Of a stretch of DNA of 64,000 bases, positions 47,101-54,749 are shown in pieces. The stretch is from sequence record PQ657772.1. One strand, written 5' to 3'. Positions within the stretch are counted from its first letter, which is position 1, and every line of letters starts with the position of its first letter. The notes under the pieces were generated by a model, which was given only the letters and a program-made list of their open reading frames with translations, did no database searches and had not been told where the DNA came from. Made by a program: the position numbers and the translations under genes. The DNA comes from Escherichia phage EC.P1.

Positions 47101-47475
47101 CTAGTATTGCACTGTTCTAATGAAAGTACCTTTACTCATGGATTTAAGCTTATGAACCTCTTCCTGCATACCCTTAATTAACCCTAAAGGTATAGGTAAA
47201 TCATGTACTAAGCTGTACTGAAAGTATTCTTCTTCAGATAAAGTACTAACATCTGGAATGCCAATTTTAGTTAGATAATCTTGATGTGTTGACCAATAAA
47301 TTATATCTTCAGTACTATTGTACTCCCCATATACTGAACAATATTGATGAATATCTTTCCTGTATCCTTGAGCAATAAAGAACTTATCTACTGCATTACC
47401 AGCATTAATAGAATTCACTTCGATTGTCACAGTACTTGAGCTTGTTTTTCCTTTACTATGCATATTAATCCCCAA
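47101..47475 (-). CDS. hypothetical protein, paralog family A
   Basis: Motif LSEEEYFQYSLV. Confidence 0.55.
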   Translation of the reverse strand: MGINMHSKGKTSSSTVTIEVNSINAGNAVDKFFIAQGYRKDIHQYCSVYGEYNSTEDIIYWSTHQDYLTKIGIPDVSTLSEEEYFQYSLVHDLPIPLGLIKGMQEEVHKLKSMSKGTFIRTVQY

Positions 47476-47651
47476 ATTAGATATCGAACACTATCAGCTT
47501 GATAGTTAGTTCCTACTGTGTGTTTTAATATTAACTCATCTTTCAGTACTGAACATTCTGCATTAGATATAGGAAGAGAATTAATTCTTTGAATTTCTGG
47601 TCGCAAAATACCGCGAAGCTTGCGGTAATCTTTGTATGATAATATTTTCAT
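47427..47651 (-). CDS. small protein, paralog family B
   Basis: Motif VGTNYQADSV. Confidence 0.5.
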   Translation of the reverse strand: MKILSYKDYRKLRGILRPEIQRINSLPISNAECSVLKDELILKHTVGTNYQADSVRYLIWGLICIVKEKQAQVL

Positions 47652-47654
47652 TGT

Positions 47655-47996
47655 TTAGTACTCAACGATGTGTTCTTCATAACCATTAAACTCCGGTTTA
47701 GTTTCTTTCATTAGGACTACCATTTTATGTACTAATGGCATAGGAAATTCTAAATCCCATACTAATGATTCTTGAAAGTATTCTTCTTCAGATAAAGTAC
47801 TTAAATCTTTAATATCAACGTGCTTGTATATTTTCTTTTCGTAATTAAGAAATGATATATATAAATCATTAACATAAGAATCATAAGTAATTGTGAATGG
47901 CTTACCCTTGTAGTCCATTACATCTTTACATAGACTGCATTTGATATATGTATGTTCTTCTGAACTGTATACATTGAGTTGTATATTAGTTTTCAT
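47655..47996 (-). CDS. hypothetical protein, paralog family A
   Basis: Motif LSEEEYFQESLV; near-duplicate of 48011..48349. Confidence 0.6.
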   Translation of the reverse strand: MKTNIQLNVYSSEEHTYIKCSLCKDVMDYKGKPFTITYDSYVNDLYISFLNYEKKIYKHVDIKDLSTLSEEEYFQESLVWDLEFPMPLVHKMVVLMKETKPEFNGYEEHIVEY

Positions 47997-48010
47997 AGTT
48001 ACCTTATATA

Positions 48011-48349
48011 TTAATACTCAATAATGTGTTCTTCATAACCATTAGGTACAGGTTTAGTTTCTTTCATTAGTACTATCATCTTATGTACTAATGGCATAGG
48101 AAACTCCAAATCCCATACTAATGATTCTTGAAAGTATTCCTCTTCAGATAAAGTACTTAAATCTTCAATGTCAATGTGTTCGTATATGTTATATTTGTAA
48201 TCAGCAAAAGATATATAAAAACCTCTTGTATTATCATAAGTAAGTGCAAATGGCTTACCTTTGTAGTCCATTACAGAGTTACATGTATGGCATTTGATGT
48301 ATGTACTTGCAAATGATTTATATACCTTGAGTTTTATATTAGTTTTCAT
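48011..48349 (-). CDS. hypothetical protein, paralog family A
   Basis: Motif LSEEEYFQESLV; near-duplicate of 47655..47996. Confidence 0.6.
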   Translation of the reverse strand: MKTNIKLKVYKSFASTYIKCHTCNSVMDYKGKPFALTYDNTRGFYISFADYKYNIYEHIDIEDLSTLSEEEYFQESLVWDLEFPMPLVHKMIVLMKETKPVPNGYEEHIIEY

Positions 48350-48623
48350 ATTTCTCTTTATTAGCTTGTTTAGATTGTGTGGTTTTATAGTGAATGAAAT
48401 CTATTAATGTAATCAAGTACAACGTCAAATAGTACTCTTGTTGATCTGTACCTAATGATACAAAGAACTTGTGCTCATAGATTAAAACCTGTTTCTCTTC
48501 AAATGGACATTTAATTCTCTGTATAGGCTTAAGTAAATGATAGTACTTATTAAATCTATGATACATTTCTAGTTCTGTCAGTACTTTCATATTAAACACG
48601 TACTCCATTAGCAGTAGCATCAC
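48339..48623 (-). CDS. small protein, paralog family B (array member)
   Basis: Motif LGTDQQEYY. Confidence 0.5.
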   Translation of the reverse strand: MMLLLMEYVFNMKVLTELEMYHRFNKYYHLLKPIQRIKCPFEEKQVLIYEHKFFVSLGTDQQEYYLTLYLITLIDFIHYKTTQSKQANKEKYEN

Positions 48624-48813
48624 GTAAAGCTAACAAATACTTCTGTACTGCTTGCTCTTGATGATCTGTACCTAAAAGTATATACACCCATAATTCATTG
48701 TAGTGTACATCTTCTGTATAAGGGTTGTTGTAACTTTTTGATAATATAGCATCAAATTCAGATGCATGAACCCTTGTGAACTTAAGAATATCTTGTTGTG
48801 TTATGATTCTCAT
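48592..48813 (-). CDS. small protein, paralog family B (array member)
   Basis: Motif LGTDHQEQAV. Confidence 0.55.
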   Translation of the reverse strand: MRIITQQDILKFTRVHASEFDAILSKSYNNPYTEDVHYNELWVYILLGTDHQEQAVQKYLLALRDATANGVRV

Positions 48814-49025
48814 ATCTTTTCCTGTACTATCTGTATAAGAATACCTATGTGTGAATTAACAGTTCTCTCTTGATGCTGTGTTCCTAAGAGTGTCAGTACT
48901 ATCATATCTGAACGCAAAAGATTTTTTTCAAGTTCACTTATATCAGTTCTTGAATCAAGTGCCATATATTTGTGATTATTCTTCCTGAATAGTGCCAAGT
49001 ACTCTTGATTTGATATTTCCTTCAT
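48810..49025 (-). CDS. small protein, paralog family B (array member)
   Basis: Motif LGTQHQERTV. Confidence 0.55.
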   Translation of the reverse strand: MKEISNQEYLALFRKNNHKYMALDSRTDISELEKNLLRSDMIVLTLLGTQHQERTVNSHIGILIQIVQEKI

Positions 49026-53090: not shown

Positions 53091-53304
53091 CTAGTTTATC
53101 CTGTATAACATTCGTTAATTGTTCGATATATTCTGTGCAAAACTTATCTTGATATTGAGTCCCCATAAAGTACAGCAACCATAGCTCATTAACTTTAGCT
53201 CGCATTTGGTTCCATGTAAGGCTGGGGTCATCGTAGACTATCCTTGCTATAGGGGTTAGTTTACGGACTATAGTTTCATATTCATCTAGTGTTAAGTGTT
53301 TCAT
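53047..53304 (-). CDS. small protein, paralog family B (array member)
   Basis: Motif MGTQYQDKFC. Confidence 0.55.
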   Translation of the reverse strand: MKHLTLDEYETIVRKLTPIARIVYDDPSLTWNQMRAKVNELWLLYFMGTQYQDKFCTEYIEQLTNVIQDKLDDYLLTKHEDFIRS

Positions 53305-53525
53305 TTACCTAAATCCCTGACATGACATTTTAAGGCCGTGATGTGGTTGTCAACCATAACCTCCTGATAGTTTGTTCCTACAAATGGTATTAATGTTGAG
53401 TCTGTTAGTATAACATACTTTTCATTGGATGTTAGTGATTCATCATCGTAAACTTGAAGTCTAAAGTTCTTCCCTTGTTCTAATCGTTTAAGATATTCTT
53501 GGGTGTTTATGTCTTTCATTTGCAT
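53301..53525 (-). CDS. small protein, paralog family B (array member)
   Basis: Motif VGTNYQEVMV. Confidence 0.55.
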   Translation of the reverse strand: MQMKDINTQEYLKRLEQGKNFRLQVYDDESLTSNEKYVILTDSTLIPFVGTNYQEVMVDNHITALKCHVRDLGK

Positions 53526-53734
53526 TTGTCCCTTATTAAATCAGTGAGGGCAACTATGTGTGCAACAACATACTCTTCCTGAAAGTTCGTCCCCAGTACA
53601 GCCATCATGCGTATATCGGTGGTGTTTATCCTGTGTTCCCTTACACATAAACCTTCTGTGTGAGGAAGTGTAAAATATTTGTTTATTGCAGCAATGATAA
53701 TTTTATTCTTCTCGGAATTACTTAAATGTTTCAT
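53516..53734 (-). CDS. small protein, paralog family B (array member)
   Basis: Motif LGTNFQEEYV. Confidence 0.55.
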   Translation of the reverse strand: MKHLSNSEKNKIIIAAINKYFTLPHTEGLCVREHRINTTDIRMMAVLGTNFQEEYVVAHIVALTDLIRDKCK

Positions 53735-53943
53735 AGTTTGCTCTTAATGTATTTCTGGAGTGCAATTATATACTCATTCAAGAAGTGCTCCTGATAATCT
53801 GTGCCGAGGAATGCACCCAATAGTATATCATTTTCCAATACTAATGCTAAGTTCAAATCATCAGTCTCTTCATATACTATGAGAATTTCAAGTTGTCTTG
53901 CAGCGACGCGTTCGGTATATAGATTTGAGTTAATGCTATTCAT
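53731..53943 (-). CDS. small protein, paralog family B (array member)
   Basis: Motif LGTDYQEHFL. Confidence 0.55.
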   Translation of the reverse strand: MNSINSNLYTERVAARQLEILIVYEETDDLNLALVLENDILLGAFLGTDYQEHFLNEYIIALQKYIKSKL

Positions 53944-54152
53944 AGTTTACTCTTAATGTAATTCTGGAGTGCAATTAAGTATTCCCCTACATAATACACC
54001 TGAAAGTCTGTATCCAAAAATGCACCCATAAGTAAATCTTTTTCTAATACCCTTGATAAGTTAAGGTCTGCATTTGAATTGTATATAATTAAGATTTTAT
54101 TCTGGACAGAAACAAAACGTATCTTATATTCTTCTGGTGTTAAAAAAATCAT
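53940..54152 (-). CDS. small protein, paralog family B (array member)
   Basis: Motif LDTDFQVYYV; close paralog of 53731..53943. Confidence 0.55.
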   Translation of the reverse strand: MIFLTPEEYKIRFVSVQNKILIIYNSNADLNLSRVLEKDLLMGAFLDTDFQVYYVGEYLIALQNYIKSKL

Positions 54153-54358
54153 AGTTTACTCTTAATATCTTCTATTAAAAAATGAATCCAATCGTCAACA
54201 TACTCTTCCTGATGGTTTGTGTTCAGTACAGCCAACATGCGGATCTCTGCTCTTGCAACTTGGATTTCAGTTTTAGAAAGGTCTTTGCTGATATCAAACA
54301 TTAAGTCCATGTATTTCAAGATAAGACCGAATGATTGGGTTCGTGTTATAGTTTTCAT
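54149..54358 (-). CDS. small protein, paralog family B (array member)
   Basis: Motif LNTNHQEEYV. Confidence 0.55.
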   Translation of the reverse strand: MKTITRTQSFGLILKYMDLMFDISKDLSKTEIQVARAEIRMLAVLNTNHQEEYVDDWIHFLIEDIKSKL

Positions 54359-54555
54359 TGTTTCCTCGTGGACAATATTTCATTTTTCAATGCATCCATA
54401 TATTGAATCACCCATCTTCCCTGATAGCTTGTACCCAATGTAATCAAAAGGTATAACTCAATTCGTTCTAAGTTTGTGTCTGTGTTATAAATCTTTACCA
54501 TGTTTTTACGTAACAGTTCTTGATAATCTTCTTTATTTAAAATACGCATTTTCAT
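54355..54555 (-). CDS. small protein, paralog family B (array member)
   Basis: Motif LGTSYQGRWV. Confidence 0.55.
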   Translation of the reverse strand: MKMRILNKEDYQELLRKNMVKIYNTDTNLERIELYLLITLGTSYQGRWVIQYMDALKNEILSTRKQ

Positions 54556-54749
54556 AGTCTACCTTTTATGTCCCTTCGTAATTCTTGTAAGTATAGTTCG
54601 ATATACTTTTCTTGATAGTTAGTTCCTATGAAAAGTTTCATAACCAATTCACGCTTATATGCAATACCACGGATATGTGACATATGTAGGATATATGCCA
54701 TGTTGGATATGAGTGTGTGGTTGTGCTCTTCTTGAGTTAAAATACGCAT
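54552..54749 (-). CDS. small protein, paralog family B (first gene of array)
   Basis: Motif IGTNYQEKYI; GGAG RBS and promoter upstream. Confidence 0.55.
   Translation of the reverse strand: MRILTQEEHNHTLISNMAYILHMSHIRGIAYKRELVMKLFIGTNYQEKYIELYLQELRRDIKGRL

Follow-up and report, generated by a model that had tools for sequence, protein, structure and literature searches.

A tandem array of small, diverged paralogous genes beside the inferred terminal repeat of Escherichia phage EC.P1

Introduction

Diverged paralogous genes that lie near genome termini or terminal repeats, vary in copy number, encode nonstructural proteins, and are tied to host range and immune evasion are known from African swine fever virus (ASFV; the MGF110/360/505 families) and from poxviruses (the Ank and host-range families and the "genomic accordions"). 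In bacteria, poly-immunity loci (SUKH/Imm and colicin-type), reportedly described by Zhang, Iyer and Aravind in 2011, hold tandem, diverged paralogs of ~80 to 100 amino acids whose variable surfaces each neutralize a different toxin. In phages, the host-takeover module of SPO1 and the pre-early genes of T5 are clusters of tiny genes located at or close to a long direct terminal repeat (DTR), which have strong host-type promoters and are transcribed inward. Here, we analyze a stretch of 64,000 nucleotides from Escherichia phage EC.P1 (PQ657772.1; hereafter, the window), in which an unbroken array of small paralogous genes, members of a family that we call F1, resembles each of these systems in part.

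The array is like the terminal families of ASFV and poxviruses in its terminal clustering, divergence, copy-number variation, and nonvirion products, without homology to them. With the poly-immunity loci it shares tandem, small, diverged paralogs on a conserved scaffold, but F1 matches no immunity family and is phage encoded, in a putative early operon. Whereas the SPO1 and T5 sets comprise mostly unrelated genes inside the repeat with their own promoters, F1 is one family in what looks like one operon just outside the repeat. A further parallel is the ~35-copy Zn-ribbon expansion of Bacillus phage G, which was called unprecedented in a study that did not mention the present family (Iyer et al. 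2021, PMC7824862). The two are alike in copy number, in the tiny size of the protein, in belonging to a jumbo phage, and in the suggested role as a panel of specific factors, but the folds are unrelated (F1 is all-helical in its predicted structure and has no Zn ligands), and lineage and host differ.

The array itself has been noted in passing. Hua et al. (2017, mBio) mentioned a ">30-gene tandem array" in phage 121Q and read it as tandem duplication (PMC5646251), and a 2026 review repeated the mention (PMC13282480). This is almost certainly the array in the same region of a phage of the same genus, where we find 23 contiguous and 2 dispersed F1 genes beside arrays of a second gene family, F2/F3. 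The mention is a single sentence that gives no coordinates, family definition, structure, context, or function and may lump F1 with F2/F3; it calls the genes "very similar," whereas F1 copies are in fact only ~28% identical. About 10% of the proteins of Klebsiella phage RaK2 are paralogues (PMC3622015), and recent Asteriusvirus genome papers do not discuss the array. The family is present in PHROGs as phrog_4148, a sequence cluster without annotation, structure, or information on genomic organization. Already known, then, are the array, in passing, and the family, as an unannotated PHROG. We add a definition of the family, an interpretation of its motif, a confidently predicted fold without relatives, the location of the array behind a conserved promoter at the DTR boundary, the anatomy of translational coupling, the distribution across two phage genera, and a picture of selection and turnover.

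Results

The F1 array occupies 48339..54749 on the minus strand. It consists of 29 co-oriented, uninterrupted genes encoding proteins of 65 to 94 amino acids, with start-to-start spacings of 194 to 254 nt (mean, 220 nt) and no intergenic gaps, and all 29 open reading frames (ORFs) are intact. We numbered the genes from #1 at the promoter end (54749) to #29 at 48339. Five dispersed copies bring the total in the window, which is AT-rich (GC, 29 to 40%) and has a negative GC skew throughout, to 34, all on the minus strand.

A profile built from the 29 array ORFs and run against the ORFs of the window recovered those 29 together with the genes at 31940, 32109, 44967, 45555, and 47427 (E values of 1e-27 to 8e-6); the next-best ORF had an E value of 0.16. 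Since this test is circular for the array genes, we also ran all-versus-all phmmer comparisons and leave-one-out profiles. An earlier note on this DNA had set clustering as one family beforehand as the test of its claim, and both methods joined 33 of the 34 copies, phmmer in a single connected component and the leave-one-out profiles with E values of 7e-7 to 8e-22 (28 of 29 within the array). Gene #10 (52582..52833, minus strand; "MTGTDKNA"), in which the invariant Q is missing, failed the leave-one-out test. Its positional orthologs in five other genomes are 66 to 96% identical, and its position, length, and retained G-T mark it as a probable divergent member. The run of 29 consecutive same-family genes that had been claimed for 48339-54749 is therefore supported directly for 28 genes and probable for #10.

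The five additional copies lie exactly where they had been listed before. The copy at 47427..47651 (minus strand; leave-one-out E value, 1.4e-10) is interleaved with F2 genes. At 45555..46364 (minus strand), the profile and leave-one-out tests place an F1 domain in the N-terminal ~75 amino acids (about 46140-46364) of a 269-amino-acid protein, as expected of a copy said to be fused to a larger domain. Its C-terminal ~190 amino acids (45555-46139) form an orphan domain, for which a search of 5.8 billion proteins found no homolog outside its own 90% cluster and which lacks a counterpart in phages vB_Ec-M-J, PBECO4, phAPEC6, 121Q, and A4. The copy at 44967..45218 (minus strand), found by profile, leave-one-out, and alignment, does not have the conserved N-terminal strand, and those at 32109..32327 ("VGSNKQD") and 31940..32131, both on the minus strand, were recovered with leave-one-out E values of 6.9e-7 and 6.6e-14, respectively.

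The repeat is visible at the protein level only. Tandem Repeats Finder (TRF) detected no ~220-bp DNA periodicity in the array, and explanations by a DNA tandem repeat, an RNA family, or tRNAs found no support (no Rfam or tRNA matches). The DNA signature CTGATAGTTTGTTCC is indeed recurrent, with 22 matches at up to 3 mismatches against 2.3 expected, but it is the reverse complement of GGA-ACA-AAC-TAT-CAG, the codons for G-T-N-Y-Q, so we rejected it as a signal separate from the protein motif. That motif, given earlier as an LGTNYQE core, is real, although only [LIVM]-[GD]-T-x-x-Q is invariant across both genera that carry the family.

In the alignment of the F1 copies, the mean column identity is 26%, and the nearly invariant positions are G, T, Q, and one Leu; G, T, and Q are 91 to 97% invariant among copies that share ~28% identity. 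The other conserved columns are hydrophobic and follow a helical periodicity. AlphaFold2, given an alignment of the 34 paralogs, predicted a three-helix unit (helices at residues 8-27, 33-47, and 54-81) with a mean predicted local distance difference test score (pLDDT) of 96.6 and a predicted template modeling score (pTM) of 0.82. A one-residue beta-bridge between residues ~4 and ~50 connects the N-terminal "x-L-S/T" to the "L-G" before helix 3. From this model, we infer that S/T-x-x-E (helix 1) and G-T-x-x-Q (helix 3) are helix N-capping boxes, which accompany a hydrophobic core. The capping-box reading is supported by the RaK2 copies, in which [LIVM]-[GD]-T-x-x-Q is retained although its two central residues are free to vary (NY, DY, DQ, NV, DK, TS, PS, and IK). 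The surfaces are not conserved: isoelectric points (pI) range from 4.4 to 10.0 (median, 8.3) and net charges from -7 to +10, with one third of the copies acidic (pI, 4.4 to 5.8) and several basic (+5 to +10). No long hydrophobic stretch that would indicate a signal peptide or membrane helix was seen in the translations by eye, no predictor having been run. The F1 product is thus predicted to be a soluble three-helix protein.

The earlier statement that the family has no described function holds. The only match is phrog_4148 (PHROGs v4, unknown function), which seven of the eight scanned F1 proteins of the window match over their full length (E values of 3.6e-10 to 3.7e-25), the eighth, at 44967-45218, giving 4.5e-4 and the RaK2 copies 1e-17 to 2e-4. 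Scans of all 34 copies against Pfam, NCBIfam, and PADLOC gave singleton, chance-level matches only, such as one to DUF7237 (E = 0.05) that did not recur across copies. A profile search of the PDB found nothing below E = 0.18, a fold search gave no PDB match above generic helical ones, and Foldseek against BFVD returned the family's own paralogs only.

Searched exhaustively with the profile, 1.84 billion cluster representatives yielded 101 proteins at E ≤ 1e-3, and a word-indexed search yielded 126, the named sources of which were all Asteriusvirus phages or "E. coli" assemblies. Many matches are labeled "Escherichia coli" and lie on ~345- to 360-kb contigs because draft assemblies of bacteria hide ~190 Asteriusvirus genomes (BAPS; PMC12768965); no match came from complete RefSeq E. 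coli genomes. Scanning IMG/VR for the motif pointed to Klebsiella phage RaK2 (genus Alcyoneusvirus), in which a 50-kb stretch holds at least 13 F1 copies in clusters of two or three and no long block. A tblastn search of GenBank phages with three distant metagenomic members found nothing. The relatives of F1 are thus confined to Asteriusvirus, the Klebsiella RaK2-like phages, and a few metagenomic contigs. Because RaK2 carries it too, the family is older than the divergence of the two genera; the long, unbroken array is, judging from these sequences, an Asteriusvirus expansion. Two RaK2 copies (NC_019526, 10149-10535 and 13814-14161) share a C-terminal extension of ~55 amino acids that looks alpha/beta ("...YEKFRFAVKDW..." and "...YEPYKFGVFYL...") and has no PHROG match.

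The array has the appearance of one translationally coupled operon, as ATGA junctions dominate and no convincing intrinsic terminator was found inside it. We examined its 28 junctions with two sets of start calls, the longest ORFs and starts refined to the conserved M-(K/R/I)-x-L-S/T N terminus. The longest ORFs gave 13 ATGA overlaps of 4 nt, none abutting, 8 overlaps of 5 to 19 nt, and 7 of ≥20 nt; the refined starts gave 17 ATGA overlaps of 4 nt, 3 abutting, 3 of 8 to 17 nt, and 5 of 22 to 40 nt. Overlaps of 20 to 45 nt, which had been described as the rule, therefore apply to just 7 or 5 of the 28 junctions, respectively. Shine-Dalgarno-like cores precede 13 of the 29 array starts, versus 16% of background ATGs. 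The synonymous substitution rate (dS) in the first 7 and last ~10 codons is 0.11 to 0.14, about half of the 0.24 to 0.32 in the gene bodies, as expected if overlapping frames and embedded ribosome-binding sites constrain silent sites.

A sigma70-type promoter-like site, TTGACT-16-TATTAT, is present at the head of the array as described before (54780..54807, minus strand), between the inferred DTR boundary and the first array gene; a GGAG ribosome-binding site and the start codon of gene #1, at 54749, follow. Among six aligned genomes, the -35 TTGAC does not vary and all six have a -10 element. PBECO4 and A4 have an extra gene and unrelated DNA upstream, yet they keep the promoter as TTGACA-17-TATGAT. 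Another near-consensus promoter-like site at 50084..50056, within the region of gene #22, may be an incidental by-product rather than a true internal promoter, since its TTGACA corresponds to the His-Leu-Thr codons of the conserved N terminus of that gene.

Across 8.5 kb around the array, the window is 98.7 to 98.9% identical to Escherichia phages WPEC3 and fEgEco12 and 84 to 97% identical to other members of Asteriusvirus (PBECO4, 121Q, phAPEC6, G17, and Sharanji), a genus of jumbo myoviruses of 350 to 385 kb. The genes under the matching stretch are all annotated as "hypothetical protein" in these relatives. The annotated DTR of vB_Ec-M-J (21,525 bp) stops ~100 bp short of the first array gene, and that of fEgEco12 (20,993 bp) was detected with PhageTerm and confirmed by restriction digests (PMC13070987). 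Transfer of either coordinate puts the inner boundary of a ~21-kb DTR at about 54848 (approximately 54840..54856). The left DTR would thus fill 54848-64000 with its last ~9 kb, and the other ~55 kb of the window would be the start of the unique sequence. In this layout, the array is the first element after the left DTR and is transcribed away from the terminus; it does not lie inside the repeat, as SPO1- and T5-type takeover genes do, but begins ~100 bp outside.

The number of F1 genes varies among genomes. By profile searches, in which dispersed copies were counted in the fetched locus only, except for the 64-kb window here, we found 29 contiguous and 5 dispersed copies in this window, 29 and 2 in PBECO4, 28 and 2 in phAPEC6, 26 and 3 in vB_Ec-M-J, 23 and 2 in 121Q, and 20 and 3 in A4. 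The RefSeq annotation of PBECO4 (NC_027364, 120728-135886) calls only about half of the array ORFs and so leaves apparent "gaps" of 200 to 600 bp, where a six-frame profile search shows the 29 contiguous copies to be intact.

Best reciprocal hits are collinear, with array position n here corresponding to about position n in the five other genomes. Pooled over the array orthologs, the Nei-Gojobori ratio of nonsynonymous to synonymous substitution rates (dN/dS) is 0.35 to 0.38 in all five comparisons, versus 0.25 to 0.39 in the flanking non-family genes. The F1 ORFs are thus real and maintained under purifying selection like that on their neighbors. Ongoing diversifying selection, as had been suggested from the size of the expansion, finds no support in these ratios, and no segment comes near 1: the ratio is 0.17 in the L-G-T-x-x-Q turn, 0.34 in helix 2, 0.39 in helix 3, and 0.44 in helix 1. 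The fastest sites (pN ≥ pS) form i, i+3/4 stripes on the exposed faces of helices 1 and 3. Gene #28 has a few dN/dS values above 1, resting on very few substitutions, and we rejected positive selection because pooled, per-gene, and per-segment ratios show none beyond the regional background.

Within one genome pair, dS differs between array positions from ~0.02 to 0.8, and some positions have no ortholog or only one that is 45 to 60% identical, which points to gene-sized allele replacement, gain, or loss. Gene #7 (53301..53525, minus strand), a lineage-specific gain, has no ortholog in the five compared genomes (best match, 29 to 32%). Genes #18 to #20 (50301..51004, minus strand; "MQNEMxYLT"), which are 55 to 64% identical, are a recent local triplication; this subfamily has one copy each in 121Q and A4, two each in vB_Ec-M-J and PBECO4, and three in phAPEC6 and here. 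Besides #18-20, apparent recent local duplicates are limited to #4-5, #13-16, and #24-25. Identity within the array is 33% between neighbors and reaches a plateau of 28% beyond distance 3, with no global distance trend (permutation p = 0.30). The array is thus old and still slowly turning over, and F1 qualifies as a tandem multigene family specific to one jumbo-phage lineage, with contiguous, co-oriented paralogs and a variable copy number.

A second, unrelated expansion extends over 18426-48349 (minus strand). It consists of F2 genes, encoding ~115 amino acids, and F3 genes, encoding ~150 to 195 amino acids, with ~38 matching ORFs in the window (for example, at 48011-48349, 36357-37530, and 27317-36347), and the first ~36 kb after the DTR is built mainly from the 34 F1 and ~38 F2/F3 genes. 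F2 and F3 form one superfamily by cross-hits of their hidden Markov models (hhalign E value, 4e-6), match only PHROGs of unknown function (13866, 15629, 9317, 12674, and 28549), and are expanded in RaK2 as well. They share an invariant F-Q within "(S/E)EE(L/Y)FQxS(L/T)," the likeness of which to the tobacco etch virus and 3C protease sites (ENLYFQ/S) is probably a coincidence.

Discussion

We tentatively propose, at somewhat less than an even chance, that the array forms one early polycistronic operon whose products make up a panel of small binders with different specificities, most plausibly used in host takeover or to neutralize polymorphic host effectors. We draw this from an orphan family whose stable mini-fold pairs a conserved core with surfaces and charges that vary, and whose orthologs are maintained, together with products that are not in the virion, a conserved host-type promoter beside the DTR, translational coupling, and copy-number flux. 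The host sigma70 RNA polymerase would probably transcribe the array from the head promoter as one early polycistronic mRNA, and translation would probably proceed by re-initiation across the ATGA junctions. The products would remain in the cell, where the fold would serve as a stable scaffold on which every copy displays a surface of its own and binds a partner of its own, so that a panel of small binders or inhibitors is deployed at the start of infection. The likeliest targets would be variable host factors, bound in the course of host takeover or of neutralizing polymorphic defense or toxin effectors. A panel of small host-factor binders, which the earlier note had also suggested, is a reasonable hypothesis, consistent with the conserved core and the variable surfaces and charge.

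Packaging as T4-type internal or injected proteins is not borne out by the virion proteome of phAPEC6, whose 62 proteins include one of 4.7 kDa but none of gp455c to gp510c, the range that holds the array (PMC7247149). The phAPEC6 array corresponds to gp467c-gp489c and the family to gp462c-gp489c, and the virion table passes from gp347 directly to gp549 (PMC7247149). By analogy, support comes from the related phage CBB, in which RpoD-like promoters are predicted to cluster in a region of short ORFs beside the terminal repeat, which its authors read as early host-takeover genes (PMC5259590). Several observations weigh against the proposed binder panel. Among known inhibitors, immunity proteins, anti-CRISPRs, and antitoxins, F1 has neither a homolog nor a match in fold. 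Nonsynonymous change is no more frequent than in the neighboring genes, which weakens the view of an active arms race, and translational coupling could equally mean a fixed stoichiometry, as in a complex. In addition, the near-invariance of T and Q (97%) exceeds the generic need of capping and could mark a shared functional site.

A more specific form of this proposal, which we consider unlikely, is a combinatorial three-helix "poly-immunity" panel, a counterpart in RaK2-like jumbo phages of the poxvirus and ASFV terminal families in which gain, loss, and swapping of array alleles set host range. Each copy would then neutralize a different variant of polymorphic host defense or toxin effectors. 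The 34 copies gave no recurrent Pfam match and no PDB match to a known immunity-protein family (SUKH, Imm, or colicin Im), and F1 shows no similarity to a known anti-defense or anti-CRISPR protein or structure. The adjacent F2/F3 genes carry no recognizable toxin domain, a result that does not bear on host-encoded targets.

If the near-invariant residues do mark a shared site, F1 could be an adaptor family, in which the G-T-x-x-Q turn and the N-terminal strand dock onto a single shared partner (for instance, a host protease, RNA polymerase, or a phage machine) and the variable helices recruit clients, in parallel with the poxvirus Ank/PRANC or BTB adaptors. The turn has the lowest dN/dS (0.17), and G, T, and Q stay nearly invariant among copies of ~28% identity and are invariant in RaK2 too; however, the G before T-x-x-Q at the N terminus of helix 3 looks in the model like a capping box and turn, and the free variation of the two middle residues in RaK2 also speaks against docking. 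We regard an adaptor role as quite unlikely. A similarly slim chance is given to F1 proteins being chaperone-, antidote-, or regulator-like subunits for the ~38 downstream F2/F3 proteins, with the 29-gene block as a store of "orphan" partners. The F1 copies outside the main block (44967-48349 and 31396-32327) lie upstream of F2/F3 genes, which hints at a functional link; F1 is directly upstream of F2/F3 at 48339/48011, 47427/47101, 45555/45247, and 31940/31396, and both families co-occur and have co-expanded, to different degrees, in Asteriusvirus and RaK2. Nevertheless, 29 F1 genes have no adjacent F2/F3 gene, the copy numbers are not one-to-one, F2/F3 carry no recognizable toxin or enzyme signature, and the two families may be neighbors simply because they fill the same early region. 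We consider it very unlikely that the copies serve as small, specific transcription factors or other DNA- or RNA-binding regulators that program the phage or host. Three-helix units are common as DNA-binding modules, the median pI of 8.3 and the several copies of +5 to +10 would suit such a role, and the like was proposed for the Zn-ribbons of phage G (PMC7824862), but none of the 34 copies matched a helix-turn-helix or other DNA-binding family in Pfam or NCBIfam, the fold search gave no match to helix-turn-helix proteins above generic helical ones, and the acidic third of the copies means that the family is not uniformly basic.

Two other accounts appear highly improbable to us, and to a like degree. 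In one, the copies are subunits of a single large hetero-oligomer, held in fixed ratios by translational coupling. ATGA coupling at most junctions, the conserved array order, and a natural in-frame fusion of #21 and #22 in a metagenome (P0102) fit this account, whereas a fixed complex is hard to reconcile with 20 to 29 copies per genome and with positions that are gained, lost, or replaced by alleles of 45 to 60% identity. No array product was found in the virion proteome, and an AlphaFold2 model of the fusion gave no confident inter-domain packing (pLDDT 64, pTM 0.48), a low confidence that arose because most alignment rows fell on one half. P0102 (154 amino acids, on a metagenome contig; equivalent to 49863-50332 in the window) may be either a tolerated fusion across an ATGA junction or a sequencing frameshift. 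In the other account, tandem duplication padded the genome after capsid enlargement, as in the "ratchet" of Hua et al., who cited such an array to argue for expansion through duplication (PMC5646251), and individual copies contribute little function. The variable copy number agrees with filler, but all 29 ORFs are intact, positions keep orthologs across genomes at dS values of up to ~0.8 with a dN/dS of ~0.36, and the residues that determine the fold are kept at ~28% identity and across two phage genera.

The 34 F1 copies account for roughly 5% of all genes in a ~375-kb phage, and F1 and F2/F3 together place >10% of the genome in two families without a known relative or fold match. Asteriusvirus phages are under development for therapy and persist worldwide in E. 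coli isolates (PMC12768965). If the proposal of an early binder panel is correct, the array would provide a compact natural library of small proteins that inhibit those of E. coli, and a tractable model of multigene-family evolution in viruses of bacteria; if the array were dispensable padding instead, the capsid-genome "ratchet" model of jumbo-phage evolution would gain direct support.

Other features of the window

Inside the inferred DTR (54848-64000), the genes are separated by spacers of 60 to 100 bp and have hairpins (e.g., 56331..56304) and individual near-consensus sigma70 promoters, such as those at 56630..56603 (score, 12/12) and 56182..56154 (11/12). Judged by analogy, this organization resembles the pre-early or host-takeover regions of T5- and SPO1-type phages. 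The intergenic region at 54830-54960 contains a hairpin that embeds a TTGACT (aatcccTTGACTttt...aaagggatt) and an unusually GC-rich stretch, GGGGGCTAAAGGGCGGGTAACC, near the inferred end of the repeat at about 54848; either could be related to terminus formation. At the other end of the window, the gene at 3720-4862 (minus strand) encodes a T4 Rnl1-type RNA ligase (Pfam RNA_lig_T4_1, 5.6e-14; T4_Rnl1_C, 2.6e-16), the only sampled gene of the window with a confident functional assignment.

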